Assembly (NCBI GenBank): GCA_963772995.1 | Contig: CAVYZQ010000013.1 | Span: 3,294 to 67,293 of the forward strand | DNA: 64,000 bases | Reading direction: 5' to 3' | Origin: an uncultured Chloroflexia bacterium | GTDB taxonomy: Bacteria > Chloroflexota > Limnocylindria > Limnocylindrales > CSP1-4 | Shown here: positions 12,729 through 64,000 of the stretch, piece by piece | Position numbering within the stretch: the first letter of the stretch is position 1 | How the letters are laid out: the number at the start of each line of letters is the position of its first letter | The notes under the pieces: generated by a model | Database searches by the model: none | Told to the model about the DNA's origin: nothing | What the model saw: only the letters and a program-made list of their open reading frames with translations | Position numbers and translations under genes: made by a program

Positions 12729-12847
12729 GGTCTCCCTCTCCAGACGATGGACGAGCGGCGATCCCCGCACCGCGCGACAGACCCCGAATGATACGGCCAG
12801 ATGCGGTCACGCTCCAGGTGGGCCGGGGCCGGCGCCCGCAGGCGACG

Positions 12848-19172: not shown

Positions 19173-19284
19173 AGAGGCTGCGATACGACCTGGGTGGCTG
19201 GTGTGAAACGCGCGTTCTGGCCGGCTGACGGGCGGGCGCGGGCGCAGCTACGATCCTGCTGGGCAGAGCCCCGGGACGGAACGG

Positions 19285-20650: not shown

Positions 20651-21342
20651 CGGCCCTCCTCGACGAGCTCACCGGCTCACTCGGCGCCGACGACATCCGG
20701 GCCTGGTTCGCGCGCTGGATGGCCCAGCTCCCGCAACCGCTGACCGCGGAGGACCGGGCCGCCGGCTACGGCTACGCGCTCTCGATGCTCCAGGTCGAGG
20801 TGTCCGACACGCGGGTCTTCGATCGGCCCATCCGGGCCGGTCAGTGGTTCGAGGCGACGACCACCGAGCAGCTCACCCTCGGCCGACCCGAGAAAGTCAG
20901 CCTGCTCTTCGGGCGTCGCCCCAACCGGCGCAGCACCTGGCGCTTCGAGACCCGCGTCGTCAACGCCTACACGAGCCCGACGATCACCTTCCGCTACAAG
21001 CACTCGACGGTGAAGCAGTACCTCAAAGGAGGGCTCGCCCTGCGGACCGAGACGACCATCAATGATGCCTACGACTTCGACCTCGGCCGACGCATCGACA
21101 ACCTCGCCTCGGTGCGAGCGCGGGGCGAGGCGATCAATGCCGCGCTCCTCGAGCACGAGGCGAACGCCGAGACCGCCCGGCTCGAGGGCCCCGAACTCAC
21201 CGATCTCGTCCGGCCGACCGTGATCGATGGTCGACGGATCGCCGCCCTCCGGCTCGGCGATCCACGGGTCATGGCGCTCCTTGCGGCGGTGGTGCTGCTG
21301 GCTCACCTCCCCCGCTCAAATGGTCAGACTCGAGCCCTGTAA
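20650..21342 (+). other. Unassigned coding-like region (C-terminal part of the 685-aa ORF), possibly the remainder of the IS or an interrupted gene
   Basis: A long open frame (..IRAWFARWMAQLPQPLTAEDRAAGYGYALSMLQVEVSD...TITFRYKHSTVKQYLKGG..) has no family that I can name. Confidence 0.25.
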
Positions 21343-26591: not shown

Positions 26592-26681
26592 TCTCGCTGG
26601 TGCATCAGCACGGAAGTGACGAGACCCTTGTGGGGATCGCAGCAACGATGAGCGGGAGGTGCAGGGCTTGATGCGGACGGG

Positions 26682-29600
26682 GTGTGTTGTTGGGCGTCGT
26701 CGTGTTCGTCGCGCTCACTGATGGGATCGGCGCCGCTTGCGGGCGAGCCGGGGAACGCGGAGAACGCGAAGACGTGCCAGAAGAACGGCTGGATGGATGT
26801 GTTTACGCGATCGGGCGAGCCGTTCTCCAGTAATGGCGCATGTACCTCGTATGGGGCCCAAGGCGGGCAGTTGATCGTCAAGGCCGCGCTGGCGTGCCTC
26901 GATGACGGCTGGAAGGCGCTGGGGCCGACACCGGGCGAGCCCTTCGCGAGCGAGCAGGCCTGTGTCGACTTCGTCAACGGTGGTGGCACGCCTGTCGCTT
27001 CGGGCGGCGCGGATCTGGCGGTCGCGAAGGCGGTCAGCAGTTCGACGCCGAACGTGGGTGACACGGTCACGTTCACGGTCACGTTGAGCGACCTCGGCCC
27101 GGACGCGGCGACGGGGGTGCAGCTGAGCGACGTGCTGCCGGCTGGGCTTGCGTTCGTGTCAGCGACCCCGAGCCAGGGCAGCTACAGCTCGGCCAGCGGT
27201 GTGTGGACGGTGGGGACGGTGACCACGACCACGGCGCAGACGCTGCGGATCGAGGCGCAGGTGGTCTCGCCCGACGCGCAGACGAACACGGCGACGATCT
27301 CTCACTCCGACCAGTTCGACCCGGTCACCGGCAACAACAGCGCGAGCGCGACTGAGACGCCGGGCGGGGCGGATCTGGCGGTCGCGAAGGCGGTCAGCAG
27401 TTCGACGCCGAACGTGGGTGACACGGTCACGTTCACGGTCACGTTGAGCGACCTCGGCCCGGACGCGGCGACGGGGGTGCAGCTGAGCGACGTGCTGCCG
27501 GCTGGGCTTGCGTTCGTGTCAGCGACCCCGAGCCAGGGCAGCTACAGCTCGGCCAGCGGTGTGTGGACGGTGGGGACGGTGACCACGACCACGGCGCAGA
27601 CGCTGCGGATCGAGGCGCAGGTGGTCTCGCCCGACGCGCAGACGAACACGGCGACGATCTCTCACTCCGACCAGTTCGACCCGGTCACCAGCAACAACAG
27701 CGCGAGCGCGACTGAGACGCCGGGCGGGGCGGATCTGGCGGTCGCGAAGGCGGTCAGCGGTTCGACGCCGAACGTGGGTGACACGGTCACGTTCACGGTC
27801 ACGTTGAGCGACCTCGGCCCGGACGCGGCGACGGGGGTGCAGGTGAGCGACGTGCTGCCGGCTGGGCTTGCGTTCGTGTCAGCGACCCCGAGCCAGGGCA
27901 GCTACAGCTCGGCCAGCGGTGTGTGGACGGTGGGGACGGTGACCACGACCACGGCGCAGACGCTGCGGATCGAGGCGCAGGTGGTCTCGCCCGACGCGCA
28001 GACGAACACGGCGACGATCTCTCACTCCGACCAGTTCGACCCGGTCACCGGCAACAACAGCGCGAGCGCGACTGAGACGCCGCGGCGGGGCGGATCTGGC
28101 GGTCGCGAAGGCGGTCAGCAGTTCGACGCCGAACGTGGGTGACACGGTCACGTTCACGGTCACGTTGAGCGACCTCGGCCCGGACGCGGCGACGGGGGTG
28201 CAGCTGAGCGACGTGCTGCCGGCTGGGCTTGCGTTCGTGTCAGCGACCCCGAGCCAGGGCAGCTACAGCTCGGCCAGCGGTGTGTGGACGGTGGGGACGG
28301 TGACCACGACCACGGCGCAGACGCTGCGGATCGAGGCGCAGGTGGTCTCGCCCAACGCGCAGACGAACACGGCGACGATCTCTCACTCCGACCAGTTCGA
28401 CCCGGTCACCGGCAACAACAGCGCGAGCGCGACCGAGACGCCGAGCGGGGCGGATCTGGCGGTCGCGAAGGCGGTCAGCAGTTCGACGCCGAACGTGGGT
28501 GACACGGTCACGTTCACGGTCACGTTGAGCGACCTCGGCCCGGACGCGGCGACGGGGGTGCAGCTGAGCGACGTGCTGCCGGCTGGGCTTGCGTTCGTGT
28601 CAGCGACCCCGAGCCAGGGCAGCTACAGCTCGGCCAGCGGTGTGTGGACGGTGGGGACGGTGACCACGACCACGGCGCAGACGCTGCGGATCGAGGCGCA
28701 GGTGGTCTCGCCCGACGCGCAGACGAACACGGCGACGATCTCTCACTCCGACCAGTTCGACCCGGTCACCGGCAACAACAGCGCCGCAACCACCATCACC
28801 CCCGCCGCTCCTCCGACCGCGGGTCCCGGTCCGATCAAGGTTGGGCCGACGGGGAGGTATCTCGTCGACCAGAACGGTGCTCCGTTCCTGATCACCGGCG
28901 AATCGCCTCAGGCGCTGATCGGCGACTTGACGGAATCAGATGCCGCGCTCTTCTTCGCGAACCGGCGCGCGCACGGGTTCAACACGGTGTGGATCAACCT
29001 GCTGTGTAACAGCTACACCGGCTGCCAGGCGGACGGGAGTACCTGGGACGGCATTCCCCCGTTCATGACGCCCGGCGACTTCTCGACCCCGAACGAAGCG
29101 TACTTTGCACACGTCGACAGGATTCTTCGCCTGGCCGCGGATTACGGCTTCGTGGTGCTCCTCGATCCGGCCGAGACAGGAGGCTGGCTCAGCACGCTGG
29201 TGAGCAACGGCGTCGACAAGGATCGCGCCTACGGTCAGTACCTCGGCAGGCGCTATAAGGACTTTCCGAACATCATCTGGATGAGCGGCAACGACTACCA
29301 GGACTGGGGACCGACGAACGATCCATATGTCACCGCCGTCGCCCAAGGGATCCGTGACGTCGACCCGAGTCGTCTGCAGACGGTCGAGTTGAACTACCGC
29401 GTCAGCGGCTCACTCGACGACCCTGCTTGGGCGCCGCTCATCGACCTCAACGCGTCCTACACCTACGAGCCGACATATCAGCAGGTGCTCAGGGACTACA
29501 ACCGGAGCAATTTCCTGCCCACGTTCCTGGTCGAGGCGAGCTACGAATTCGAGCAGGACGGGCAGCGTCCAGCCGGCACAGCAGATGAGGCGGCAGGAGT

Positions 29601-30097
29601 ACTGGTCGCTCCTGAGCGGAGCGACCGGACAGCTCTACGGCAACCACTACACGTGGCAGTTCATCTGCCCGCAACGAGACGGCGCCGGAAACTGTGTCGG
29701 AGGCTGGAAGGACCAACTCGACACACCCGGTGCGACCCAGATGGCGTACCTGAACGCGCTATTCGAGTCGCGACCGTGGTACGCGCTCGTTCCGGACCAG
29801 GCGCACACATCGTAACGAACGGCTTCGGCACCTTCGGCGAGCGACGACTACGTCACGGCTGCGAGCACCCCCGACGGGACGCTCGCGATGGCGTACGTGC
29901 CGTCGAACCGGACCATCACTGTCGACATGAGCAGGTTCAGCGGCCCCGTCACGGCACGGTGGTACGACCCCACCGCCGGGACGTTCACGAGCATCTCCGG
30001 CACCCCGTTCCCCAACGTCGGGAGCCAGCAATTCAGTACACCAGGCGCGAATGCCGAAGGTACCGACGACTGGGTGCTCGTGCTCGAAGTGCACTAG
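26682..30097 (+). pseudogene. Large secreted protein with 5 tandem DUF11 repeats plus a C-terminal DUF4038/GH5-like glycoside-hydrolase-like domain, with at least 4 frame disruptions
   Basis: There are five repeats of GGADLAVAKAVSSSTPNVGDTVTFTVTLSDLGPDAATGVQLSDVLPAGLAFVSATPSQGSYSSASGVWTVGTV...NNSASATETP. A frameshift lies at the repeat 3/4 junction (about 28085). The C-terminal region (FLITGESPQALIG, FNTVWINLL, RRQEYWSLLSGATGQLYGNHYTWQF) is read across 3 frames. Confidence 0.6.
27001..28790 (+). repeat. Tandem array of 5 near-identical 360-bp units (each unit is one 120-aa DUF11 domain)
   Basis: The unit starts at 27001, 27361, 27721, 28081 and 28442. There are only a few SNPs between copies (for example agcagttcg/agcggttcg and cagctgagc/caggtgagc). 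Unit 4 is 361 bp. Confidence 0.9.
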
Positions 30098-30189
30098 GAG
30101 CGGACTCCCGTCGGCCTCGTGAGACGCGGGAGCGGACGCGCCAACATTAGAACGAATGTTCATGGTCGCGGCGAGAGGAGTCACACCAC

Positions 30190-31301: not shown

Positions 31302-32162
31302 TCAGGAGGGCAGGCGTCGCCTGCGGATCAGGTCCCTCAGCGCGAGCCCGACGAACCGGACATTCACGACGGTGTAGCGACGCGCCAGCCGGCGCGGCTC
31401 GTGGTACAGCCTGAAGAGCCACTCGAGTCCGAAGCGCTGCATCACGCGCGGGGAGCGGGGCAGGACACCGCTGACGATGTCGAAGGCCGCCCCGACGGCC
31501 ATGATCGCCGGTGCGTTGAGGGCGGCCCGATTGTCCGCGAGCCAGAGATCCTGCTTCGGTGTGCCCAGCCCGACCCAGATGAAGTCGGCATCCGCTGCGT
31601 TCAACCGGGCGACCATCGCCGCATTCTCCTCGGCCGTCAGCGGTCGGAAGGGTGGGGTCTCGCACCCAGCGACGATGAGGCCCGGATATTGCGTCGAGAG
31701 CTGCGCCGCCAGCCGTTGGGCGACACCATCACCACCCCCGTAGAAGAAGTGTCGGGCACCCTGCGCGCGCCCAAGGTTCGCGATGTCGGGCAGAACGTCG
31801 AGCCCACACACGCGTTCGATCCGGTAGCCTCGCGCCCGGCCGACCCAAACCAGAGGGACCCCGTCCGGGACGACCATCCCTCCGCCCTGCAAGGCATCGC
31901 GGAGGTCAGGCCTATCCTGCGCCTCGATGATCGTATGGGCCGTGCAGAAATGCACTCGCAGCCGAGCCCGGTCAGCCGGTGCCGCCAGGAAGGCTGAGAT
32001 CGCTTCCTGGTAGGTGACGGCCGCGATGGGGATGCCGGCGATGCCTACGACGCGAGAAGCGTCGTCAGGTGCCACGCGTTTCCACGGGGTACTCTCCGCG
32101 TCCACCTCGACCGGACGGGTCGCGAGCCTGCCCGACCCCACATCAGTCGACAAGGGGTCCAA
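31302..32162 (-). CDS. WecB/TagA/CpsF-family glycosyltransferase (GT26)
   Basis: Motifs include HFCTAHTI, GGGMVVPDGVPLVW and VAGCETPPF...FIWVGLGTPKQDLW. The true start is probably internal (VVGIAGIP...). Confidence 0.75.
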   Translation of the reverse strand: MDPLSTDVGSGRLATRPVEVDAESTPWKRVAPDDASRVVGIAGIPIAAVTYQEAISAFLAAPADRARLRVHFCTAHTIIEAQDRPDLRDALQGGGMVVPDGVPLVWVGRARGYRIERVCGLDVLPDIANLGRAQGARHFFYGGGDGVAQRLAAQLSTQYPGLIVAGCETPPFRPLTAEENAAMVARLNAADADFIWVGLGTPKQDLWLADNRAALNAPAIMAVGAAFDIVSGVLPRSPRVMQRFGLEWLFRLYHEPRRLARRYTVVNVRFVGLALRDLIRRRRLPS

Positions 32163-33775
32163 CCGCCGAACCGGTCATCGATCGCTCGCCGTGTCCGGCT
32201 GCAGTCGCCGGGTGGCTCCCCGCCGTCACGCCGGGAGCGAAGTAGCCGTAGGACGCCTCGGCGCGCGGGTTCGGCATCCGGTTCATGACCAATCCGAGCA
32301 TCCGCGTTCCAACGATCGACAGCGCGTCACGCGCCGCTCGGACCGCATCTCGTGGCGTGTGGTCGGCGTCGACGACGACGATCGACCCGTCGACGAAAGT
32401 CGATAGCACGGCCGGATCGGTGAACAGGTTGATCGGGGAGCAGTCGAAGATCACGATATCGGCGGCCGCAGCGAGACTTTCGACGATCGTTCGCATCCGC
32501 GCCGAGCCAAGGAGCTCCGCCGGATTCGGCGCCGGAGACCCGGCGGTGATGATACGGAGATCCGCCTGTTCGGTCGTCTGAGCCACGGTGTCGATGTCGA
32601 TATGGTCGAAGCGCATGAGGTCGGTCAGGCCGACCGTGCCAGACAACGAGAAGAAGCGATGCACGTTCGGCACGCGGAGATCGGCATCGACGAGGATCGT
32701 GCGTTTGCCAGCTTGTGCAAACACGATGGCGAGATTGCAGGCGACCGTCGTCTTGCCATCCTGAGGCTGGGCGCTCGTGACAATCATGGTCTTGGACGGC
32801 GCGGAGATCGCCGTGAACTCGATGTTCGTCCGAAGGACGCGGAAGGCCTCGCTTACCGGGGACCGCGGGTAGAGAAGGGCCGCTAGGCCATAGATCGGAT
32901 TGCGGTCCTTCTCGGTATGCATCCGGGGAATGAGGCCGAGGACCGCGAGACCCGTCAACCGTTCGGCTTCCTCGCGCGTCTTGAAGTGGTCCTCGAAATG
33001 ATCCAGCAACAATGCGAGGGCGGCAGCGATCAGGGCGCCCGCAGCGAGCGCGAGGAGCAGGTTGTTCAAGATCTGCGGCGACGAGGGCGATGTCGATGGG
33101 ACCGCCGAATTCGACGATGGCCAGGTGATTCGCGCCCGAGTTCGTCGCGTACGTCAGCATCGACGCGTATGTCGAACGAAGCGACAGCAGTCGCGCTTGC
33201 AGCTGGGTGAGTTGCTCTTGCTCCGTGGGGCTCGGACTCGCAAGGCTGGCGAGACGGTTCACCTCTGCCTGGGTGGACCTGATCTGGTCCTGGAGGGTGA
33301 CGAGGTCCTCGGCGACGAATTCTTCCACGCCCGATCCCTGACCGCCCTGCACGGTCGGCGAGTAGGCGATCAGCTCAGCCGCCATCTCGTTGGCGATGGC
33401 GGCTGCGACCTTCGCGTCGGCGTCGCGGGCCTGGATCGTGATCAGCGAGCTGTCGGCCGCGGTCGTCACGCTGATCCTGCGTTGGAGCGTGCCGGGATCC
33501 ACTGGGAGATGAAGCTTGTCGATCACCGCCTGCAGGATGAGTCGAGTCGTGGCGATCTGCGCGTACGTCGTGCTGAGCTGCTGAGAGGCAGCCATTTGAC
33601 TCAGGTCCGGGTTCACCGCCGTCAGGGACTGGCCGACGATGACTTTGGCCTGGCTGTCGTACGCCTTGGCGCTTGTCAGGCTCGAGGCGAGCGCACCCAC
33701 GACAGCAAGCGAGATGACCGCGATGATGAGCCTGTGTCGGGCGCGGAGGACGGCCAACAGGGTCCGAAGGTCCAA
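32143..33775 (-). pseudogene. Polysaccharide co-polymerase / tyrosine autokinase (Wzz domain plus BY-kinase P-loop ATPase), frameshift between domains at about 33075-33095
   Basis: The N-terminal Wzz domain is in ORF 32327..33775 (membrane anchor LIIAVISLAVVGALA, coiled-coil). The C-terminal domain is in ORF 32143..33069, with Walker A (SAQPQDGKTTVACNLA) and VDADLR. The kinase frame is open upstream across the junction. Confidence 0.75.
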
Positions 33776-33870
33776 GGTTCTCCTCGAGTGAAGACGAAGC
33801 GTCGCGAGTATGACAGCAAAAAAGCCAAATGCCGTCGACGGCGGTGCCCGGCCGCACCACAGACTTTCGC

Positions 33871-33906
33871 TGCCGGCGTGGCTGCCGGCGTGGCTGCCGG
33901 GACGGT
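33871..33906 (+). repeat. 12-bp direct repeat (CTGCCGGCGTGG, about 3 copies) in an 830-bp intergenic region
   Basis: Seen directly in the sequence. It lies in the long non-coding gap between the divergent BY-kinase and CWB2-protein genes. Confidence 0.6.
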
Positions 33907-35774
33907 ACCTAATCGCCCTGCTCCTTCGATCGTCGCCCTCGGATCGGCGGTCCGTTGCGCGACGAGGTGCTCATCAGCCTGACTATCCGACTAACGACAG
34001 GATGGAACGGCTGCAGGTAGGGTCGCTCTACCGACTATCGAGGACGTACGACCGGCCGGTACGACAAAGCCAACCCTGCAGTGATGCGGGTGAACGGAAG
34101 CCACGTGACTTCCTGCATCCCCAGGAAGCCAGACGGTTGCCGAATACCGACCACGTCGCGCCGTTGCGTGCTGTCTGCCCCGTCGCCGGACCACCGGTCG
34201 CCGCACCAGACCGTGCCAGGCTGTGTCGCGTGGTCTGAGGGACCATGCATTCCGATACGGGACCCGATCGCCGTTCGTCGAGCCCAGCCCTGGCGCTCCC
34301 CCGCCACTGAAGGCATCCGCCTCGAGTTCACGGACGCGGGAACGATCGCGAATTCAGGATCGTACGCCCTCAGCCGGCGGACGAGGCATCGGATCGGGCC
34401 TGGAAAAACGCCGGCGAGGCTATCGGCTACGCCCCGGTCGAGGAGGCGCTTGACGGCCCAGTGGAGAATAGTGGTGCGTCCGCGCACCACATATTTGCGC
34501 GTTCCCCCGACGCGACCGTCGATCGACTCGATACGCCCAAGCCTTGCCCGTGTGCCTGTCACGGGCGGTCATGTCACGTCGGGGTTGCCACCAGAAAGAG
34601 GTGCCTCGACATGCCCACGTTCCGGCGATCCAATGCCGTCACGAGGATCGTCCTCGTGGTCGCACTCGTTTTCGCGCTCTGCGCGTCGGCGTTCGCATCC
34701 ACCCCAGCTTCTGCTGCGGGCCTGGTCACTCGTCAAGCGGGTGCCGGTCGCACGGCGACTGCCGTGGCGATCAGCCGGGCGACATTCAGGCCCGGCGTCC
34801 CCGTCGTCTACGTGGCTGAACAGGCGGACCTCGCGTACTCGCTGCCCGGGGCGGCAGCAGCCGGCGCACTCGGTGGTCCCGTGCTGCTGACCGCCCGCAA
34901 CGCGCTGCCAGGGCAGGTCGCTCGGGAGCTCACCCGACTCCGGCCGGCGCGGATCGTCGTACTCGGCGGGACCCGCCACGTTTCCAACGCCGTTCTCGCG
35001 AGGCTCCGCTCGTATGCCCGAAGGTCATTCGCCAGGCTGGCGCGGACCGGTTTGCCACGGCCGCGGCCGTGAGCGCTGCTGCCTTCGCTCCCGGTGTGCC
35101 CGTCGCGTATGTCGCGCGATACGACGATTACCCGGCCATGTTCGCTGCTGCTGCCGCAGCCGGCGCGCTCGGCGGTCCCCTCCTCCTGACCGACCCGCGA
35201 AGGCTGACCCGCGCGACCGCGAACGAGCTCCGCCGGCTCCGTCCTGCGCGAATCGTCGTCGCCGGTGGAACCGGTGCCGTATCGAATGCCGTGCTGTACA
35301 CACTCCGGGGTGTATGCGGCGAGGGTGTCGCGCCAGGCGGGCGGCGATCGATACGCCACGGCGGCCGCGATCGCCCGGGGAACGATACCCGAACGGGGCC
35401 GATCTGGCATTCGTCGGCAGCGGCCTCAACATCGCCGACGGAGCGACCGGCGCCGCCGCAGCCGCGAAGCTGCATCGGCCGCTGTTCCTGACCGCCGTCA
35501 ATGACCGCGTCGGCTCCGACCGCGGCAGGACTCCTACGACAAGCGCCGCGAGCCCTCGTGATCCTCGGCAGCGAGACGGCCGTTTCGACCGCCGCCGCGA
35601 CGACGCTCGCTCGTGTGATCGCGTCGGCGGCCGAAGCCGAAGCCGACCGAGCCGACGCCCACGCCGACGCCGACCCGACGCCGACGCCGACGCCGCCCGA
35701 CGCCGACGCCGACCGCCCGACGCCGACGCCGACGCCGACGCTCCCGCGGCCACGCCGACTCCGACTCGCCGACG

Positions 35775-35894
35775 CCAACGGCGACTCCGACGCCGACGCC
35801 GACTCCTCGGCCAACAGCGACTCCGACTCCGACGCCGACGCCAACGGCGACTCCGACGCCGACGCCGACTCCTCGGCCAACAGCGACTCCGACT
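35775..35894 (+). repeat. 60-bp direct repeat x2 inside the PT-rich linker (low-complexity CCGACG microsatellite)
   Basis: CAACGGCGACTCCGACGCCGACGCCGACTCCTCGGCCAACAGCGACTCCGACTCCGACGCCGACGC is repeated at 35775-35834 and 35835-35894. Confidence 0.7.
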
Positions 35895-36005
35895 CCGACT
35901 CCGACGCCGACGCCACCGCCGGCCCCGCCAGGACAGGCCTTCACGACCATCCAGGCGGCAGTCGATGCCGCTCCATCTGGGGCGACCATCACCGTCCCGC
36001 CGGGG

Positions 36006-36345
36006 GTCTATCGCGAGAGCGTGACCATCCGAAAGCCCATCACCCTCAATGGCTATGGCGCGATCATCGATGGACGAGACACGGCCGGGAACCTCGTCCG
36101 GTCGACGTGGCTGTCTGTCGCCGCGAACGACGTGACCGTCCGCGGCTTCACCATGCGCTACGCGAATGGGACGTATGCGACCGGCTCGGTCGAGAACGCG
36201 GTCGGCGTCCAGCGGTTCCGGCTCGAGGACTGCGACCTCGGCTTCAGCTACGTCAACCTGAACCTGACGGGAGCCATCGACTCGACCATCAAGAACTGCG
36301 CCATCCACGACGCCAAGCATCTTGGCGTCCGGGTGTCGGCTCCCG
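36006..36345 (+). repeat. Copy A of a 340-bp, about 99% identical inverted repeat shared with the paralogous beta-helix gene (copy B at 41056-41395)
   Basis: Base-by-base comparison of 36006-36345 with the reverse complement of 41056-41395 shows at most 5 mismatches, whereas the flanking coding sequence of the two paralogs is clearly diverged. Confidence 0.85.
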
Positions 36346-37123
36346 GTGTCAACAACAATCGAGGCCAGCGCAATCAGGTTATCGGCAACCGCATCTATCG
36401 CAACAACATCGTGGGCGAGCCTGATAACAACGGCGACGCGGCCGGGATCAAGATCACCGCTCAGGACAACTTCGTGATCTCGGGCAACGAGGTCTACGAC
36501 AACGGGGCCAACGGTCTCTGGCAGGACGCCTGGTGCCGAAACTCCATGATCTCGAACAACCGCGTCCATGGCAACAATGGACCCGGCATCTTCGATGAGA
36601 CCTCGACCGGCACGAAGATCAGCGGCAACGTCTCTTGGCGGAACGGAGCCAATGAGCCGTGGGGCTGGGGCGCCGGCATCCTCGTCGCCGCATCGAAGGG
36701 CACCGAGGTCTACAACAACACCCTCGCCTGGAACAGGATCGGCATCAGTTACATCAGCCAGAACCGCGGTGACGACCCCGGCATGACCGGCAACTACAGT
36801 CACGACAACTTCGTGGCCGAGGCGCAGCAGGTGGCCGGTCAGGACCACTGGGGCTCGTTCTGGGCGCAGGACTGGAACGGCATCCTGTACCTGCCATCCA
36901 GCAACAACCACGGCCTCAACGACCGCTTCTACTACGCCAACCCGGACGGCTCGTTGGCCCCCGAGAACCAGTACCTCCGGTTCATCTGGGACGGCTACCG
37001 GAGCGCCACGACCTTCCGGACGACACCTGGCGGCCAGGGCGCATCCTATGCCACGCAGGCCGATGCCACGGCTATCCTGACGGCGGCCGGCGTGCCGTCG
37101 ACTCCATAGACAGCAGGCGATGC

Positions 37124-38190
37124 TTAACCGACGGCCCGGTACACCGCCAGCGTCTCTTCGGCGCAACGCCGCCAACTAAAGCGGCGCACCCGCTCGCGAC
37201 CTGCCGCGATGTGATCGTCACGCCGGCTCGGGTCGTTGGCCACGGCCAGCATCGCGTCGAGATAGGCAGCGGGCGTCTGGTCCGCGTAGATCGGGGCGTC
37301 ACCTCCCAGTTCGGGCAGGCTCGCCAGCGGCGAACAGATGACCGGACAGCCGAGCGCCATCGCCTCGACGAGCGGGAATCCGAAGCCCTCGTACCTGGTC
37401 GGGAAGACGAGGGCGAGGGCTCGCCGATAGAGATGGACGAGGACCTCGTCGTCCTGCCGGCCCGCATACCCCCATCCGGGCGGCGGCGAACCTTCGCCTT
37501 CCACGCCGAGCCAGCGCGCCCCCACGATCACGAGCGGCGGAAGGAGGATTCCCGGCCTGAGGCAAGCTCATAGACCTCGCGCAAGAGTCGAAGGTTCTTG
37601 ACCGGTTCGAGTGACCCTACGAACAGGTAGAAGTCGTGCGCCAGATCGAAGTCGGGAGGCCGCTCCGGCGGGATCAGGTCCGGGCTGAAATCGCACCCGT
37701 TGTGCACCACCTCGATGAGCGACGCCGGGAGGTCAAGGCAGCCGATCGCCTCATCGGCCGTGAACTGGCTGATACAGATGACGCGGTCGTAGCCTGACAA
37801 CGCCGCGAGCCGGCGCGGGCCACTCCTGCGTTGCCAGGCGCGATATCGATCGGGATACCGAAAGATGGCCATGTCGTGGGCGGTGGCGACCTTCCGTATT
37901 CCGTCCGGGATCCGCGCCATCGGGCCGGACGTCGCATGGAACACGTCGAGCTTCGCGGACCGCATGCGGCGCGGGGCGATCCACGGTGCCCAGACAGCCT
38001 CCCGGTAGACGGTCTTGAGGGACCGCTGAGGCTGCCGATAGTCGAGGTTGTCGACCTCCCAGGCCATTGGCACGACCTCGACGTCCGAGACGTCCAGCGC
38101 CTCCAGTCCTGCCAGCAAACCCCGGATGTATCGGGCGACGCCTGCCTGGGTCGTGCGCAGCCCGTTCGTGTCGACTCCGACGCGCATCAC
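37124..38190 (-). pseudogene. GT4-family glycosyltransferase, single frameshift at about 37545-37560
   Basis: The N-domain is ORF 37528..38190. The C-domain is ORF 37124..37531, with the EX7E-type motif FPTRYEGFGFPLVEAMALGCPVI. The junction ...LLREVYELA/..GILLPPLVIVGARW is consistent with a GT4 fold. Confidence 0.7.
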
Positions 38191-39389
38191 TCGACCCGTC
38201 GCCCGCGGCGATGGACCGAACGCGCCTTGGTGGCCCGTGCCCGGTCATAGATCTCCAGGTGCTTTTGGTAGCTTCGCCCGGGGGTGTAGCGCTCCTCGTA
38301 CTCGAGACGCGCGGCCCTGCCCAACGCGAGGATCTCGCCAGGATGCGATCGAGCCCAGTCCACCTTCGACGCAAGAAAATCTGGCGCATCGGCCGCGAAC
38401 ACGACACCACCGGAACTGCTTCCGACGATCTCGCCGAGCGATCCAAGATCGCTCGCCAGGACCGGCAAACCAGTAGCGAACGCCTCGGCGATCACCATCG
38501 GAAAGCCTTCGTACCAGATCGATGGGACCACCAGGAAGCTCGCCTCTTGCATCAGGCGCAGCACGTCGTCCTTCGGTCTGCGCCCGAGCCACTCGACGCC
38601 TGGGATACGGTCGGCTGCCGTAGCGACCTCGTCAGCGAGCGGTCCATCACCGACGATCTTGAGCGGGAAGGCACCATCGAGGCGCTCCCATGCCGAGAGC
38701 AACGTCGGCAAGCCCTTTTCGATCGCCAGGCGACCGGTGAACAGCGCGAAGCCCCCGTCGTGGGAGCCGACCCCCGGGTCCGGGTTGATGAAGTTCGGCT
38801 TGATGACGATCCTGTCGCCTCGAAGGCCGCCGGAGATGAGCTGCTGCCGTGCGAACTCGGATAGCGTGATGTAGACGTGGACGAGCCAATTCCAGGTCTG
38901 CAGCAGCCGGTGGGTCGACAGCATGCCCGCAACGACCAGGCTGGCGGATCGACTGTCCCGGTAGCACGCGTGCTTGACGGCCGGCCACGGGATCGGTCGT
39001 CCGACACAGTCGACACATGGTCGGCCGTCGCGGAAGAGCGTCGCGCCGGGGCAGATGAGGCGGTAGTTGTGGATCGTCTGGACGACGGGCACTCCCTCGG
39101 CGCGCGCGGCGTAGTAGCCCGCCGGCGAGATCAACGGGAACGTGTTGTGGAAGTGCACCACATCAGGGCGAAACGACCTGAGCATCGCACGCAAGTCGTC
39201 ATGGGCGCGCCGGCTCCACAGCGTGGTCGCGGCGAGGGTCCACGGCTTCATGTCGGCGACCCTGGCGTTGTCGTCCGTGTACAGCATGACGGAATGCCCG
39301 AAGGATTCCATCAACTCGCTTTCAGCCGCGAAGACCGAGTCCTCGCCGCCAGCCTGTTGGTATCGGTCATGGACGAAGACGATGCGCAT
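38187..39389 (-). CDS. GT4-family glycosyltransferase
   Basis: It is an intact 400-aa protein with SIWYEGFPMVIAEAFATGLPVLASD. Confidence 0.85.
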   Translation of the reverse strand: MRIVFVHDRYQQAGGEDSVFAAESELMESFGHSVMLYTDDNARVADMKPWTLAATTLWSRRAHDDLRAMLRSFRPDVVHFHNTFPLISPAGYYAARAEGVPVVQTIHNYRLICPGATLFRDGRPCVDCVGRPIPWPAVKHACYRDSRSASLVVAGMLSTHRLLQTWNWLVHVYITLSEFARQQLISGGLRGDRIVIKPNFINPDPGVGSHDGGFALFTGRLAIEKGLPTLLSAWERLDGAFPLKIVGDGPLADEVATAADRIPGVEWLGRRPKDDVLRLMQEASFLVVPSIWYEGFPMVIAEAFATGLPVLASDLGSLGEIVGSSSGGVVFAADAPDFLASKVDWARSHPGEILALGRAARLEYEERYTPGRSYQKHLEIYDRARATKARSVHRRGRRVE

Positions 39390-39514
39390 CCTTACCTGCT
39401 GAGGGCCCGAAGGCCATTACGATCCCCTGCCGGCGCGATTTTCGAAGGACCCGTCTGGCGCCGGGACAGGGTACCCGACATGCCTTCAGGCGAGGAACGA
39501 AGACCTACGACTGG

Positions 39515-40312
39515 TCAGCCACGACGACGGAAGATGTAGATGTACCCTTCCGTACCTACGCCGGCGGCTTCATCCGGCTCCTGATGTCGCAGGTCGAGAG
39601 CCGCGGACTGGGCGACGGCGACGACATCTGCCGGATCGGTGTAGTACATGTCGAAGACGACGGACGTTCCGTGTCGCCACCGTCTGTATCTCGACCGCAC
39701 GCCCACCGGCAAGGCGTCGACGATGCGTCGGCGCGTCGTCGTTCGCGCAGGCCCACGCGATGGGAGCTGGAACGCCACGAAGCCGCCCGGAGCCGTCACC
39801 CTTCCGAATTCGGCGACATAGCTGGCGGCTAGCGACCAGGGCATGTGCTGCAGACAGATGTGCGAAAAAGCCAGGTCGAAGGTGGCATCCGGGAACTGAC
39901 GGAGGTCGACTGCATCGTTGACGAGCAGGCGGACGTTCGGGGCGCTCGCGACGACAATGCGGCCACGTTCGATCATCGGCGCCGAGATATCGACGCCGGT
40001 GACGGAAGCCGCCCTGCGTCCCCATGCCATGGACAGGCGCCCGACCCCGCAACCGAAATCGAGCACCGACGCGAAGGGACCCGTCTGCCCTGCGTCACGC
40101 AACAGTCCCTCGTACCTGGCAACGTCGGTCTCCCCTCGGGCGAGGAATTCTTCGAGGTCCCAGCGGCCTCGCCGGCGGTCCGCGTCGGTCAGGATCGCCC
40201 AGAGCGGGTCGTCCGTGCCAAGCGTCTGCCACGTCTGCCTGAGTTCGTCGAATTCCTGCGACGACACGACAGTTTGCCGCGGTTCGGCCGACGGCTGCCG
40301 CGAGCCGTTCAC
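39515..40312 (-). CDS. Class I SAM-dependent methyltransferase
   Basis: It has VLDFGCGVGRLS (motif I) and a Rossmann fold. Confidence 0.8.
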   Translation of the reverse strand: MNGSRQPSAEPRQTVVSSQEFDELRQTWQTLGTDDPLWAILTDADRRRGRWDLEEFLARGETDVARYEGLLRDAGQTGPFASVLDFGCGVGRLSMAWGRRAASVTGVDISAPMIERGRIVVASAPNVRLLVNDAVDLRQFPDATFDLAFSHICLQHMPWSLAASYVAEFGRVTAPGGFVAFQLPSRGPARTTTRRRIVDALPVGVRSRYRRWRHGTSVVFDMYYTDPADVVAVAQSAALDLRHQEPDEAAGVGTEGYIYIFRRRG

Positions 40313-41646
40313 GGAGCGATCGGCACGTCCGCCCCGAGGATCGCGTCGGTCTCCTGGCGCGTCAGATAGGTGCCGCCCTGCTCCCCTGGAGTGCCGTTGA
40401 AGTCGGACAATGTGGATCGCCCGCCGTCCCAGACGAAACGCCAGAAACGGTCCTCGGGAGCCGGGTAGAAGTATCGGTTGCCTGATCCGCGGTTGTTACT
40501 CGCGGTGGCATATAGCGGACCTGGCCAATCCTGGGCCCAGAACAGGCCGTAACGGTCGTTAACAGCGCTTGGCCGGTCTTCCACGATGATGTTGTCGTGG
40601 ACATAGGTGCCGGTCACGCCGGGACTGTCCGAGCGATCCTGGCTGATGACACTGATGCCGACCTTGTTCCAGGCCAACGTGTTGCCGTACACCTCGGTGT
40701 CCTTCGATGCGGCGACGAGGATGCCGGCGCCCCAGCCCCACGGCTCGTCGGCGCCGTTGCGCCAGATGACGTTGTTGTAGATCTTCGAGCCGGTGCTCGT
40801 CTCGTCATGGATGCCGGGGCCGCCGTTGTCGTGGATGCGGTTGTTCCGGTAGGTCGAGTTGCGGCACCAGGCATCCAGCCACAGACCCTTGCCCGAGTCG
40901 TAGACCTCGTTGCCATCAAGGACGAGGAAGTCCTGCCCGGTCGCCTTGAGGTTACCGGAATCCGCTCCGGGGTCAGGCTCACCAGTGCGGGCGTTGTGGA
41001 AGATGCGGTTGCCGATGAGCTGGTTGCGCTGGCCGCGGTTCTGCGTCGGAGTCGTGGACGACACCCGGACCCCGAGATGCTTGGCGTCATGGATGGCGCA
41101 GTTCTTGATGGTCGAGTCGATGGCTCCCGTCAGGTTCAGGTTGACGTAACTGAAGCCGAGGTCGCAGTCCTCGAGCCGGAACCGCTGGACGCCGACCGCG
41201 TTCTCGACCGAGCCGGTCGCATACGTCCCATTCGCGTAGCGCATGGTGAAGCCGCGGACGGTCACGTCGTTCGCGGCGACAGACAGCCACGTCGACCGGA
41301 CGAGGTTCCCGGCCGTGTCTCGTCCATCGATGATCGCGCCATAGCCATTGAGGGTGATGGGCTTTCGGATGGTCACGCTCTCGCGATAGATGCAGGCCGG
41401 CACCGTGAGTGTCCCGCCGGTCGGCGTGGCGTCGATGAGTGCCTGCAGGCTTGACGTGCAGGTCTGAGGTGGAGTCGGTATCGCTTCTATTGCTGTCGAT
41501 CGATCAGGGGCAATCACGTCGGAGACCAACGTGAGCGCAAAGGTAGTGGTGATGACAGGCACCAGAATCGCTGCCCGCCTCCACGTGACGACCGTTCGGA
41601 CGTGCCGCGAATCCACGAGCCGATGGTACTTTAAGCCGGCGGGCAA
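40309..41646 (-). CDS. Secreted/membrane-anchored right-handed beta-helix protein, intact paralog of the 36.0-37.1 kb domain
   Basis: It has an N-terminal hydrophobic anchor (AAILVPVITTTFALTLV), then TGGTLTVPACIYRESVTI and a beta-helix core. About 110 aa are identical to the other copy. Confidence 0.75.
   Translation of the reverse strand: MPAGLKYHRLVDSRHVRTVVTWRRAAILVPVITTTFALTLVSDVIAPDRSTAIEAIPTPPQTCTSSLQALIDATPTGGTLTVPACIYRESVTIRKPITLNGYGAIIDGRDTAGNLVRSTWLSVAANDVTVRGFTMRYANGTYATGSVENAVGVQRFRLEDCDLGFSYVNLNLTGAIDSTIKNCAIHDAKHLGVRVSSTTPTQNRGQRNQLIGNRIFHNARTGEPDPGADSGNLKATGQDFLVLDGNEVYDSGKGLWLDAWCRNSTYRNNRIHDNGGPGIHDETSTGSKIYNNVIWRNGADEPWGWGAGILVAASKDTEVYGNTLAWNKVGISVISQDRSDSPGVTGTYVHDNIIVEDRPSAVNDRYGLFWAQDWPGPLYATASNNRGSGNRYFYPAPEDRFWRFVWDGGRSTLSDFNGTPGEQGGTYLTRQETDAILGADVPIAP
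41056..41395 (-). repeat. Copy B of the 340-bp inverted repeat (see 36006-36345)
   Basis: The reverse complement matches 36006-36345 with only a few mismatches. Confidence 0.85.
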
Positions 41647-41772
41647 ATCTCCATCCCGCGGCCAGTGGATGCCGAGAGGTTCACCTCCCTTGTCTCATCG
41701 TAGCGAACGCGCAGGTCTCCTTGACCGTCCGCGACATTGCCACGCGGCCCAGTCCGACTCGGGGATCCGAAA

Positions 41773-42702
41773 ATGATCGACGTGCCCCCGAAGGTCACTA
41801 TCGGCATCCCCGTATACAACGGCGGCGCCTTCTTCACGGAGTGTCTCGAGGCCGTCTCCCGCCAGACATTCGGGGATCTTGAGGTGATCATCTCCGATAA
41901 TGCGTCGACCGACGGTACGGCCGATGTCGCCCGCTCATTCGTTGATCGGGATCCGCAATTCCACTATGTGCGGTTCGAGCAGAATCGGGGTGCCGCAGCC
42001 AACTGGAACAGGGTCGTGGAGCTCGCAAACGGTACCTATTTCAAGTGGCTGGCAGCAGACGACCTCATCGAACCGACGTACATCGAGCGGTGCGTCGCCG
42101 TCCTCGACGAGGAACCCGATGTCGTGCTCGTGACTCCACGGGTCCGGCTCATCGATCTCACCGGGAAGCCCCTCGAACGCACCCCTGGGACGGACCGTTA
42201 CGTGGCACCACACGGCGAAACGAAGAGCGCGCCCCGCGCTCCAGTGACCGGCCTCGCGTCACGGTCCGCCCTGCGTCGGTTCCGAAGTGTCGTCATGTTC
42301 GTGACCGACAGCGGGCTGGCGGCCTATGACATGAGTCTGATCCGTCTCGAGCCACTGCGATCGACGATGCTCGTGGAGCCGTACGTGGGTTCGGAGAAGA
42401 TCCTCCTGGCGCAACTGAGCCTCGTCGGGCGCTTCGTCCTGGTGCCCGAAGTGCTCTACTCGTGGCGGATCCATGCCGACCATATGGGGTCGAAGAGCCC
42501 GGCTGAGGCGACGCGAGGGCTCGATCCGACATGGACGGGTCGCTTCCCCATGATGGGCCCACGTCAGATCGTCGGCTACCTTCGTGCGATCCGGGTCGCG
42601 AAGGTGGATCCAGTCACGAAGCTAGGCTGCCTTGCCGTGATCATCGAGAAGATCCCGCGCGGCTTCTGGTCGCAATTCGGAAGGCGGATCGTCCGGCGAT
42701 GA
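41773..42702 (+). CDS. GT2-family glycosyltransferase
   Basis: It has IGIPVYNGGAFF...DLEVIISDNASTDGT (GT-A DxD-type fold). Its stop overlaps the next start (ATGA). Confidence 0.8.
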   Translation: MIDVPPKVTIGIPVYNGGAFFTECLEAVSRQTFGDLEVIISDNASTDGTADVARSFVDRDPQFHYVRFEQNRGAAANWNRVVELANGTYFKWLAADDLIEPTYIERCVAVLDEEPDVVLVTPRVRLIDLTGKPLERTPGTDRYVAPHGETKSAPRAPVTGLASRSALRRFRSVVMFVTDSGLAAYDMSLIRLEPLRSTMLVEPYVGSEKILLAQLSLVGRFVLVPEVLYSWRIHADHMGSKSPAEATRGLDPTWTGRFPMMGPRQIVGYLRAIRVAKVDPVTKLGCLAVIIEKIPRGFWSQFGRRIVRR

Positions 42703-55129: not shown

Positions 55130-58100
55130 TACTGCCCGGCGGCGCGGAACGTAGCGACCTGCATCAGCCAGCCGCCGGATACGATGGCAGTGGCCGCGTA
55201 GGTGCCGGTGCTGGTCGACCACGCGATCGTTGACGATGTCGGCGTCGGGCACGGTGATGAGACGGGTCGTGAACCCGGTCCCGGAACCCGCTGAAGCCGC
55301 CGGTCGTGACGCCAGCGCCGAAGATGAGCTCCGTGGCGAACGCCGTCGAGACGTTCCCGCTGCTCGCGCTCGAGGAGGTCCCGGACGCGGTCGCGGTCGC
55401 GTCGAACGGGCGCGACGCATCAAGGCCGCTGTATTCCGTGATCCGCACGTCGGCGTAGGGCACAGCATTGCCGAACACGACGGTCACCGTGTTCGCGCCC
55501 GCGGCCGCGGACCGGATGTTCGGCGCGAAGTAGATCGCCTGGCTGACGCCTGGCCCGCGGGCCGTCGGCGCGGCCGACTGGTAGGCGTTGCCCGCGCTAT
55601 CGGTCACGCTGGTGATCGTCGACGTGGCGTCATTCCAGCCGATGGCGACGATGTTGGTGTCACCCGAGGCCTGCGCTCCCGGGTAGGCGATGGCGACCGT
55701 GCCGAGGCTTGTCTGGGGCGTTGCCGCGCTCGCCTGGATGAAGGTCGGCGTCGGGACGACCGTCGACACCGTATAGGTGGCGGTGTAGGACTGTCGCGCT
55801 GGCGGGCACGGTGATCGTGTGCTGTCTCGCGCCCCCGTCGGACCACGAGGCGAAGGTGTAGGCAGTCGCCCCGGACGACTGGTCCCGGGCCTCGATCGTG
55901 TGGTTGAACCCGACGAGCGTGTCGTAGACGAACGGCGCGGTCTTGGCGATGCCGTCGAGATACAGCGTCAGCCCGCTCGGTGACGGTGGCGAACGAGAGG
56001 TTCACCTTCCGCGGCCAGATGGTCACGAACGTCGACGACGTGAGGCCGCTCGAGTCGACGACCGTCAGCATGATCCGGTAGCGGGTGTTGCCGCTGAAAT
56101 CATGCCCCGTGGTCGGGATCGTGAAGGTCCCGCTCTTGACCCCGGTGATGGGTGTTCCCGGGTGCACGTGACCCTCGTGCAGGAAGTCGATGTTCCAGGT
56201 GAAGGCGGCCGCCGGCAGCGTGCCATCCTCGGTGTCGGTCCCGCTGCCACTGAACGAGATGACGTCGCCCGCCACGAAGAAGGCCCCGTCGGTCGGCGCC
56301 TGGATCGACGCGACGGGCGGATTGCCGGCGCTGATCGCGATGGGCGTCGCAGACCGTCTGGTTCACCCCGTCGGACACGGTCAGGCGAGCGTTGTAGCGA
56401 CCCGGCGGCGTATACGTGTGGACCGGGTTGGCAGCCGTCGACGTCGTCCCATCGCCGAAGTCCCAGGAGTAGGTCAGGGCGCGGCCTTCCGGGTCGAGCG
56501 ATCCTGCGCTGGAGAAGGTCACGGCGAGTGGCGCGGGCCCCGACGTCGGGTTGGCCGAAGCGACCGCGACCGGCGCCTGGTTCGACTGAGATGTAGCGGA
56601 TCCGGCGGATCTTGCTGACGCCGAACGTCCCGCCGATGTCGGAGTAGCCGAGATCGACGTAGTACAGCGCGCCGTCGGGACCTTCGGTCAGGTACACGAT
56701 GTCGCCGTATGGGCCATCGACCGAACCGTCGGCGGGCTCGAAATTGTTGATGCTCACGAAGTTGCCGTTGGCGTCGAGGTGGAGCCGACGGATCCAGTTC
56801 TGGGTGTAGTCGGCGAAGAAATAGTCGCCCTGGTACGACGCCGGGAACTGCGTCCCGTGGTAGACGAAGCCACCCGTGACCGCCGAATCGCGCCCGTTGT
56901 GCGGGTACGAGTAGAGCGGGCTCGTGCACGGGGCCGGGCACGGGCCCTCGTAGTTGGGCCAGCCCGAAGTTGGCGCCCGCGGCGCCGACGTCGACCTCCT
57001 CGACCGCCGTCGAGTAGTCGTTGCCGCCCACGTCGCCGACGTACATCCGGCCCGGTCGGCGCGTCGTAGTAGGCGCGGTAGGGGTTGCGCAACCCGAGGG
57101 CCCAGATGGAGTCCACATTCGGGCCGGCGCCGTCGTAGAACGGGTTGTCGGTCGGGATGGTCCCGTCCTTGTTGATGCGGTGGATCTTGCCCCGCGGGCT
57201 CGTCAGGTCCTGGGCGTTGGCGGCGAGGAAGTGCTCGCCGGTCGTGAAGTAGAGCTTGCCGTCGTTGCCGAACATGATCGCGCCGCCGTGGTGCTCGGCA
57301 TTCGCGTCCAGCGGGTCCTGATACAGGACGGTCTCGCTGCCCGCCACGGTCCCGGTGATGGTGCTGTTCGCCGTGAACCTGGCCAGGCCGGTCGCGGTTC
57401 GGCGAGCCGAGGGTATAGAAGACGTAGTAGTAGTGGTTGGTCGTGAAGGCGGGGTCGAGCGCGATGTCGTAGATCCCCTGCTGCACGCCGGCCGAGCCGA
57501 TGTTCGTGATCTGGAGGAACGGCGTCGGGTCGGGCGTGGTGTACGGCGGCGGCAGCACCCTGATCGTACCCGCCAGCTCGACGACGAGCATCCGCCCATC
57601 GGGCAGGAACTCGATATTCGTCGGCAGGTTGAAGCCCGTCGCCAGGACCTCGTTCTGGAAGAAGTTGGCGTTGGCGACATTGACCGCCACGCCCGCCGAC
57701 AGGGTGCTGTTCCCGGCGGCATCGCGCGCTCGCGCGGTCAGCGTGTGGGCGCCGTTCTGCGCCGCGCGCGTGTCCCAGGCGAGCCCGTACGGGGCCGTGC
57801 TGTCCTCGGCGCCGGTCGCGACCCCGTCGACGTAGAACTGGACCGCCTGGACTCCGACGTCGTCGGCCGCGTTGGCCGTCACGTTCACGATGTCGGTGAC
57901 CTGCGCACCCGCGGCGGGCGCCGTGATCGACACCGACGGCGGGGTCGTGTCGCCCGACGCCAGGCCCGAGGCTGTTAGCCATGTCGGCCTGGATCTCGGC
58001 TGACGACAGCGCCCGGTCGTAGATGCGGACGTCGTCGACGCGCCCGCTGAAGAGGTAGCCTCCATTGGCCCGTCGGCCGATGAGGACGTTCTGGGGGGAG

Positions 58101-63357: not shown

Positions 63358-63398
63358 CGACAGAGGGACATCCGGCAGGACCTGCTCCTCCCCTGTCG

Positions 63399-64000
63399 TC
63401 ACCCGACCACCTGCCCCACGCCGCGCTTCTCGAGGGCGCGGGCGACGATCATCCGCTGGATCTCCGAGGTCCCCTCCCAGATCCGGTCCACGCGCAGCTC
63501 GCGCAGGTAGCGCTCGGGCGCGTACTCGCGCATGTACCCGCGACCACCGAACACCTGGACGACGCGGTCCGCGCAGCGCCACGCCGCCTCCGACGCGAAC
63601 AGCTTCGCGAGTGACGCCTTCGCGTGGACGACCTTGCGGTCGGCGCCCGAGTCGGCGAGCCAGGCGCACTCGCGGGTGAGCAACCGCGCCGCGGACGCGT
63701 CGGCGGCCGAATCCGCCAGCGGAAAGCTGACTCCCTGGAAGTCGTAGATGCGCTGCCCGAACTGGATCCGCTCCGGTCGCCCACTCGACTGCCAGGCCGA
63801 GGAGCCGCTCCATGGCGCCGGTGCAGCGCGCCGCGATGTGGATCCGCTCCTCCACGAACCAGTCGTTGGTCAGCTCGTCCGCCCGGCCCACCCCGCCGAG
63901 GACCGCCGACGCCGGCACCCGCACGTCGCCCAGCACGAACTGCGGATGGCGGTCGGCGAACGTGTGGGTGTAGTCCGGGTCGTGCTTGAGGGTCAGGCCG
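63399..64000 (-). pseudogene. Acyl-CoA dehydrogenase, C-terminal part (gene continues beyond window end); 1-bp insertion at about 63773-63776
   Basis: The C-terminal domain has ...KLFASEAAWRCADRVVQVFGGRGYMREYAPERYLRELRVDRIWEGTSEIQRMIVARAL. Upstream, ...VEWAT/ERIQFGQ are joined only after removing one G in GACCGGAGCGG. Confidence 0.7.

Follow-up and report, generated by a model that had tools for sequence, protein, structure and literature searches.

We analysed a 64,000-nucleotide stretch of DNA (the window) from an uncultured Chloroflexia bacterium, positions 3,294 to 67,293 of contig CAVYZQ010000013.1 in GenBank assembly GCA_963772995.1. Near its middle two genes for right-handed beta-helix proteins, here called A (forward strand) and B (reverse strand), point toward each other. 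Between them lie two GT4 glycosyltransferase genes (GT4a and GT4b) and the gene of an S-adenosylmethionine (SAM)-dependent methyltransferase (MT). Embedded in A and B is a patch of nearly identical sequence, present as an inverted repeat, and this patch is the subject of the present analysis. A sequence-only reading of the window had put the patch at 36006-36345 and 41056-41395, with about 99% identity and about five mismatches, and had taken it for the mark of recent gene conversion between paralogs. From the sequence comparisons below, the patch is very probably a recent intrachromosomal (ectopic) gene-conversion tract between ancient inverted beta-helix paralogs of a Wzy-dependent surface-polysaccharide locus.

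Comparison of the window with itself recovered the inverted near-identical pair, which the repeat search delimited as 377 nt at 94% identity (35962-36338 and 41059-41435). Base-level alignment and an exact-run search refined this to a core of 332 bp, 36007-36338 (+) against 41390-41059 (-), with four mismatches (at 36248, 36308, 36323 and 36326) and 98.8% identity, close to the first estimate. Within the core, A and B share exact runs of 241 bp (36007-36247) and 59 bp; with a background identity of 76%, a perfect run of 240 bp would begin at any given position with a probability of about 2e-29. The two copies have the same codon phase, show no indel relative to each other, and encode protein that is 100% identical over 106 aa. 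No third copy was found in the 64-kb window. Outside the core the two genes are about 60-80% identical, with 56-84% identical columns per 100-column block of the DNA alignment (gaps counted), in keeping with the moderate similarity first described for the remainder of the two proteins; BLASTN aligns the genes at 84.6% over 823 bp, the patch included. The 5′ edge of the patch is sharp and coincides with the onset of protein homology between A and B, at the first beta-helix coils, and the 3′ edge is graded or ragged.

Synonymous divergence (dS) between A and B collapses inside the patch only, to 0.048; downstream of it dS is 0.82, and upstream it is 2.33. In the first 240 bp of the patch dS is zero, and all four differences are synonymous third-codon positions. 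Contigs with related loci, given L numbers here, and related proteins, given P numbers, allowed this divergence to be placed in time. When neighbouring genes of the window are compared with those of relatives (the L001, L005, L006 and L019 lineages), dS is 0.46-0.66, about ten times that of the patch. The patch is young relative to the paralogs and relative to the split from the nearest relatives. A and B themselves are much older, A-type and B-type orthologues being separate in the relatives, with synteny kept.

We also counted informative sites in unrooted quartets that set A and B beside one orthologue from the A position (L007 or P0004) and P0003, an orthologue of B. In the part preceding the patch, 21-23 sites favour orthology, with none for the pairing of A with B and none for the third grouping. 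Within the patch the counts become 0, 18-22 and 0, and in the C-terminal part they return to 53-59, 1-3 and 1. The collapse of dS, the greater age of the paralogs and the switch of site grouping within the patch all bear out the proposal of recent gene conversion; a discrete tract, collapsed dS and incongruence between tract and flanks, three marks of ectopic gene conversion, are present here.

A middle segment, which separates the patch from the conserved WGWGAGILV region, bears an older mosaic signal. In it the A-position orthologues L007, P0004 and P0007 group with B instead of A, and B reaches 91-94% nucleotide identity to them. Protein identity to these orthologues is 84-85% for B and 66% for A, and 23 informative sites place B with the A-orthologues, against 6-10 and 6-9 for the other groupings. 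In this segment B shares no more than 57-63% identity with its B-type orthologues. In the patch, likewise, the window protein is 85-89% identical to A-type orthologues and 59-67% identical to B-type ones. Since the patch and middle of B are nearer to A-type than to B-type sequences, they point to an older transfer from an A-type gene to B, and B probably received both in an earlier event; the same gene pair carries at least one exchange older than the patch, in its middle segment. We considered a reciprocal swap of the middle segments, by two past crossovers, and found it unsupported: the 23-site pattern only places B as sister to the A-orthologues, which in a quartet with no root leaves A no partner but the B-orthologue. 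At the protein level the middle of A is 56-61% identical to B-types and 66-70% identical to A-types and to B, and it is not B-type. An exact run of 46 bp is also shared by A and B at 36654-36699, corresponding to 40746-40701.

We examined the related loci for layout and orientation. Contigs L001, L005 and L006 are laid out as the window is, with Wzz (-), farther on an a- or A-type beta-helix gene (+), then GT4a (-), GT4b (-), MT (-) and B (-), followed by a GT2 glycosyltransferase (+) and Wzy (+). Orientation relative to both fixed flanks is identical in these four long contigs, counting the window. In all, four species-level relatives retain this layout and orientation, and none of them has a patch of this kind. 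Shorter contigs agree: L019 carries Wzy-GT2, B and MT, and L007 carries A and GT4a. The C-terminus of B is followed by MT in both L011 and L012, and the 4-nt overlap between B and MT recurs in L005, L006 and L019. A B-type N-terminus is joined to a B-type C-terminus in seven cases, with one exception (P0002 on L014). No near-identical A/B block was found in the inverted pairs of L005, L006, L017 and L018, which are 74-80% identical by BLASTN; homogenisation of the patch is specific to the lineage of the window.

The a/B pair of L001 is about 75-92% identical along almost all of the gene, only the last 45 codons or so excepted. A hint from the L001 proteins (85% vs 70%) had raised the patch as a candidate recombination hot spot across lineages, and this candidate was dropped when the hint was gone at the nucleotide level. 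L001 also carries tandem beta-helix genes (10096-11364 and 11826-13090) that are 98.7% identical over 1270 nt and differ in their N-terminal domains; this pair reflects recent duplication or conversion. Exchange among these beta-helix paralogs is common, as seen from the L001 tandem copies and from P0004, P0007 and L007, which are mosaics relative to A and B of the window. L001 has additional repeats of about 300 bp at 9823-10131, 13847-14155 and 14186-14488, with identities of 87-96%.

Two other loci differ in gene content. In L017 (1-4723) and L018 (3200-7800) an inverted beta-helix pair flanks an acyltransferase-3 gene and a short methyltransferase remnant, with no GT4-GT4-MT, so that the cargo between inverted paralogs is variable. 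L018 was considered as a second, inverted arrangement and set aside; it is merely the reverse complement of the L017 layout. In the window itself no convincing gene occupies the roughly 0.8 kb that separates Wzz from the CWB2 gene (33776-34610), and at the matching place L015 has a whole beta-helix gene (P0004, 956-2821), so a gene was either lost or gained between the lineages.

Table 1. Features of the window bearing on the inverted beta-helix genes (coordinates are window positions; MT, methyltransferase).
Feature	Position	Strand	Remarks
Gene A	34611..37109	+	signal peptide, three CWB2 repeats, linker, right-handed beta-helix body; Pfam PF04122, PF13229/PF05048
Gene A, CWB2 repeats	34725-35617	+	PF04122; three in tandem
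Gene A, low-complexity linker	about 35640-35930	+	D/S/A or P/T
Gene A, beta-helix body	about 35940-37109	+	
Patch copy in A	36007..36338	+	N-terminal cap and first beta-helix coils; encoded stretch ends HLGVRVS
Patch copy in B	41059..41390	-	about residues 58-168 of the 417-residue modelled B protein (by coordinate arithmetic)
Middle segment, older mosaic signal	36339..36740	+	between patch and conserved WGWGAGILV region
Gene B	40309..41646	-	N-terminal hydrophobic membrane anchor (…WRRAAILVPVITTTFALTLVSD), then right-handed beta-helix body
GT4a glycosyltransferase	37124..38190	-	convergent with A; Pfam; two open reading frames, 37124-37531 and 37528-38190
GT4b glycosyltransferase	38187..39389	-	400 aa; PF13439, PF00534; 65% identical to L006 orthologue
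Class I SAM-dependent MT	39515..40312	-	PF13649/PF08241
GT2 glycosyltransferase	41737-42702	+	fixed right flank, divergent from B; Pfam
Wzy-type polymerase/O-antigen ligase-like protein	ends 44252	+	fixed right flank; Pfam
Wzz chain-length regulator fused to BY-kinase ATPase	32143..33775	-	fixed left flank; Pfam

Gene A is longer than its database call (P0009, 36021-37109): no stop interrupts the reading frame as far back as 35619, and the signal peptide and CWB2 part (34611-35630) lie upstream, spread over several frames by 1-nt indels. Pfam matched CWB2 on two fragments, and the three repeats were placed by tblastn. When corrected for indels, A gives a clean frame of signal peptide and three CWB2 repeats, which over the part compared shares about 74% identity with the unbroken orthologue of L015. 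The linker encodes D/S/A/N repeats in a frame with 100% GC at third codon positions and P/T repeats in the frame that reaches the beta-helix; it also holds two exact copies of a 66-nt unit (35767-35832 and 35833-35898), its true frame being uncertain through indels. The database call of B (P0001, 417 aa, 100% identical) starts at a GTG at 41562, and the orthologues suggest a longer start. B heads the gene string B-MT-GT4b-GT4a, its stop overlapped by the start of MT by 4 nt.

Against Pfam cut-offs of 25.9 and 23.6 bits for Beta_helix (PF13229) and NosD (PF05048), A reaches 56.4 and 40.6 bits and B reaches 58.2 and 60.4 bits. AlphaFold2 models B as an all-beta coil (pLDDT 91.7). With this model Foldseek matched the AlgE4/AlgE6 epimerases (2pyg, 5lw3), NosD (7osf) and RbmB (9ozl), as well as PL6 lyases (chondroitinase B 1dbg and alginate lyases) and phage tailspikes, at a sequence identity of only 9-19% and TM-scores of about 0.45-0.59. 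A sequence search of the PDB with B gave no match. A and B share the beta-helix fold and the setting in an exopolysaccharide locus with AlgE4/AlgE6 and AlgG mannuronan C5-epimerases, PL6 lyases, RbmB and NosD-like proteins; the likeness to the AlgE, PL6 and RbmB enzymes is at fold level only. We infer both proteins to be extracytoplasmic enzymes that modify polysaccharides, A anchored to the wall and B to the membrane, the putative family assignment being likewise one of fold.

Pfam agrees with the gene content first read between the beta-helix genes, two GT4 glycosyltransferases and a SAM methyltransferase. The wider region, 21-53 kb, is a Wzy-dependent surface-polysaccharide cluster with a priming transferase, WecG, Wzz/BY-kinase, GT2 and Wzy, together with further GT4 and methyltransferase genes and sugar-nucleotide enzymes. 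GT2 and Wzy are 81% identical to their L006 orthologues. In the same cluster a 360-bp tandem repeat (27001-28784, about five copies, 99% identical) encodes DUF11 (PF01345) domains. It belongs to a secreted protein that joins DUF11 repeats with an apiosidase-like glycoside hydrolase, on open reading frames (ORFs) 26652-28142 and 28135-30150 that are probably one gene.

Elsewhere in the window, Rfam matched a group II intron domain V/VI (RF00029) at 20473-20571 (+), with 47.1 bits against a gathering score of 40. Upstream of it, at 19.2-20.4 kb, the coding signal changes frame repeatedly and may represent an indel-broken reverse-transcriptase ORF of the intron; the ORF at 19207-21342 has no Pfam match. 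At 61092-63999 (-), domains like those of ADP-forming acetyl-CoA synthetase are divided between a pair of ORFs that overlap in different frames, with CoA_binding and Succ_CoA_lig on one and ATP-grasp_5 on the other; this is either a two-subunit arrangement or a frameshift.

A codon-usage hidden Markov model run over the window found many frame switches within coding regions. The clearest sign of many single-base indels in the assembly is a gene of about 4.7 kb at 55164-59878 (-) that encodes a large, secreted protein of several domains and is broken more than ten times; by eye, its translated fragments include Ig/FN3-like, LamG-like, sugar-dehydrogenase-like and PKD-like stretches. Wzz/BY-kinase is split by an extra T at 33109 (in GAATTC), and the intact 577-aa L006 orthologue matches it in two frames that meet at 33110-33114. 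GT4a has a frameshift near 37555, the intact 354-aa L006 orthologue changing frame at 37552-37555 by tblastn. Both genes are unbroken in relatives L001 and L006. Compared with the intact L015 orthologue, the CWB2 part of A has five single-base indels (at 35021, 35311, 35384, 35500 and 35631), and gene A has at least one more in the linker.

The omega of the corrected A frame against L015 is 0.36, being 0.38 before and 0.34 after the first frameshift. We considered A as a decaying pseudogene or silent donor cassette and rejected this in view of the single-base nature of the indels relative to an intact orthologue, the omega of about 0.36 on either side, and the similar indels in unrelated genes. 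We conclude that these indels arose as errors in the consensus, as is typical when a long-read assembly is left unpolished, or are very recent lesions at most, and that they do not mark long-standing pseudogenes. They are a reason not to over-interpret the apparent pseudogenes of this region (the N-terminus of A, GT4a and Wzz).

An assembly with this many errors, from the Wzz, GT4a and CWB2 frameshifts to the broken gene at 55.2-59.9 kb, lends some credit to the view that the patch itself is an artefact of assembly or polishing, one paralog's consensus having overwritten that of the other, or different strains having been joined in a chimeric contig. We consider this very improbable. Scattered 1-nt indels are the pattern of unpolished long reads, and since they survive, the assembly was probably made without short-read polishing, which makes cross-mapping between the paralogs improbable; multi-kb reads, which such a pattern would imply, would be anchored by unique flanks and would not cross-map over 332 bp. 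The patch copies lack any indel between them, and four of four differences at synonymous third positions would have P of about 1% if the differences were random errors. Paralog identity of 60-80% around the patch is too low for a repeat-graph collapse, and the boundaries, 5′ at the start of protein homology and graded at the 3′ side, are those of real conversion tracts. The assembly collapse that the sequence-only reading had offered as its alternative is therefore unlikely, given the four synonymous mismatches and the uncorrected indels.

A further rival would explain the identity by strong purifying selection on the protein or on a nucleic-acid element, or by a mobile element present in both genes. 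The patch does encode a conserved part of the fold, and the separate 46-bp exact run falls in the invariant WGWGAGILV motif. Yet the first 240 bp also lack any synonymous difference, the orthologous proteins diverge by 11-41% across the patch region, and Rfam has nothing at the patch. The patch is no insertion: it lies in frame and collinear with the corresponding region of all family members, to which it is homologous. In orthologues the patch is not conserved to this degree, so purifying selection, which the sequence-only reading had linked to a patch common to all orthologues, cannot account for the nucleotide identity. The chance left to this rival is negligible, and the dS contrast together with the divergence of the orthologues effectively refutes it.

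Inversion needs more discussion. The sequence-only reading had noted that recombination between the copies would swap the N-terminal regions of the two proteins, which is geometrically correct, these being a CWB2 wall anchor and a membrane anchor. It had offered this as a possible surface-variation switch. A flip of 36.34-41.06 kb would trade the beta-helix bodies between the CWB2-anchored and membrane-anchored N-termini and would put MT-GT4b-GT4a behind the promoter of A. The patch could then be the working crossover site of a segment inverted by homologous recombination, with inversion frequent and functional as a phase or domain-shuffling switch. This is compatible with gene conversion and differs in claiming frequent functional flipping. 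The geometry suits it: the repeats are inverted and in phase, 4.7 kb apart, both chimeric genes would keep their frame, and the exact run of 241 bp is usable for recombination and ample for RecA. The mosaic middle segment speaks for repeated exchange between A and B, and for Salmonella tufA/tufB, a published study gives nearly half of the selected conversions between inverted copies as accompanied by inversion (PMC5485169). Against these points stand the uniform orientation in L001, L005, L006 and the window, with standard junctions in L019 and L007 on the side they cover; the B-MT overlap kept in L005, L006 and L019; and the seven consistent joins of B-type termini against one exception. Both gene starts, together with the sequence upstream of them (34.4-34.6 kb and 41.65-41.74 kb), fall outside the segment between the patch copies, as judged from gene geometry, and with both predicted promoters outside, a flip would have no ON/OFF effect. 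The patch is, moreover, lineage-specific and hence no conserved design feature.

The one exceptional contig, L014 (1-4618, assembled by MEGAHIT), reads GT2 (-), a B-type N-terminus with an a-type body (+), GT4a (-) and GT4b (-). Its beta-helix gene thus starts divergently from GT2 with a B-type N-terminus and runs into an a/A-type body convergent with GT4a, as a flip would have it. Where an inversion product would carry the methyltransferase, however, this 4.6-kb contig has about 450 nt of non-coding-looking sequence. We considered L014 as direct proof of inversion and then gave it less weight, the expected methyltransferase being absent and the contig short and possibly chimeric; L014 is either a different locus architecture or an assembly chimera, and no simple flip. 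Nor did Pfam find a recombinase or invertase domain in the scanned ORFs of 21.5-53.9 kb or in selected ORFs elsewhere, coverage of frameshifted regions being incomplete.

Taking both sides together, we regard a frequent, functional inversion switch as unlikely. Distinctly unlikely is its most specific form, a recombinase-free RecA flip-flop that shuffles the beta-helix bodies between CWB2 and membrane anchors and has left the older mosaic as the footprint of earlier pairs of crossovers. The 241 bp of perfect inverted homology could nevertheless support an occasional RecA-mediated inversion of the 4.7 kb as a by-product. Were inversion real, it would be a rare recombinase-independent switch shuffling enzyme bodies between two cell-envelope anchors, and the flip-flop would divide an environmental high-GC bacterium into subpopulations that differ in how their exopolysaccharide-modifying enzymes are placed or processed.

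Several known systems invite comparison. The tufA and tufB genes are about 99% identical over their full length and lie far apart. For these inverted duplicates of Salmonella and E. coli, the cited work describes RecA-dependent gene conversion, with conversion and inversion of the intervening DNA as alternative outcomes of one recombination event (Hughes 2000 cited in Paulsson et al. 2017, PMC5485169). Both cases have two inverted paralogs on one chromosome and continuous conversion tracts of a few hundred nucleotides, and the size of the present tract fits those of experimental bacterial conversion (mean walk of about 500 nt for tufA/tufB, PMC5485169). A and B differ from the tuf genes in being 60-80% identical save for the 332-bp tract, in lying 4.7 kb apart, in their unlike N-terminal domains, and in being known from sequence alone.

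In the sap system of Campylobacter fetus, RecA-dependent inversion reportedly occurs between conserved 5′ regions of opposed sapA homologues. The invertible segment is said to hold a single promoter, inversion switching the homologue that is expressed, and both orientations have reportedly been observed experimentally. Opposed surface-protein paralogs, a shared 5′-proximal block, a segment of a few kb between them and homologous recombination as the proposed driver are common to sap and the window. The window differs in having its promoters and N-termini outside the segment, in the lineage-specific nature of the block, and in the single orientation seen.

Site-specific switches (Hin/Gin/Cin, the Rci shufflon, Bacteroides capsule promoters and hsdS ivr) use repeats of about 15-40 bp with a dedicated recombinase nearby. 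As in these, inverted repeats of the window flank a segment for surface structures, and a flip would trade C-terminal parts as the Gin/Cin tail-fibre switches do. The differences are a coding repeat of 332 bp and the lack of a recombinase among the scanned ORFs. Short inverted core sites were not seen at the repeat, which is in-frame coding sequence with a graded 3′ edge. The window locus is no site-specific invertase system or shufflon.

Segmental conversion or reciprocal recombination also operates in antigen families, such as Neisseria pilE/pilS, Anaplasma msp2 and Mycoplasma genitalium MgPa (review PMC4534519). Their likeness to the present case is in mosaic genes made by homologous exchange of internal paralog segments bounded by conserved tracts (PMC4534519). 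The antigen families have one expression site with silent cassettes, in host-associated pathogens. In the window pair, by contrast, both copies look expressed and enzymatic, only two are present in the window, and the organism is found in soil and other environmental metagenomes.

Some points weigh against reading the patch as a recent conversion tract. Scans of genome collections and metagenomes found no strain-level relative, giving distant or short loci, and the closest relative DNA is only about 85-94% identical in its best segments. Either gene may have been the donor in the recent 332-bp event, and the exchange may have been one-way or reciprocal. A search with the middle segment of A found no close relative (at most 66-70% aa identity). 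The window assembly, finally, has many 1-nt indels.

Gene conversion between A and B remains the best explanation of the patch. A break or gap in one gene copy would have been repaired by homologous recombination, probably of RecA type, templated on the other copy, and the repair would have overwritten about 330 bp. The tract would begin where homology between A and B begins, the sequence upstream being a CWB2 anchor and linker in one gene and a membrane anchor in the other. The process is of a well-known kind, ordinary gene conversion. What the locus offers is a clean case of segmental concerted evolution, with diverged inverted paralogs, sharp boundaries, a more than tenfold contrast in dS, and orthologues that date the event. 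The beta-helix enzymes of such exopolysaccharide loci evolve as mosaics, and this matters for trees and for transfers of function that rest on alignments of whole genes.

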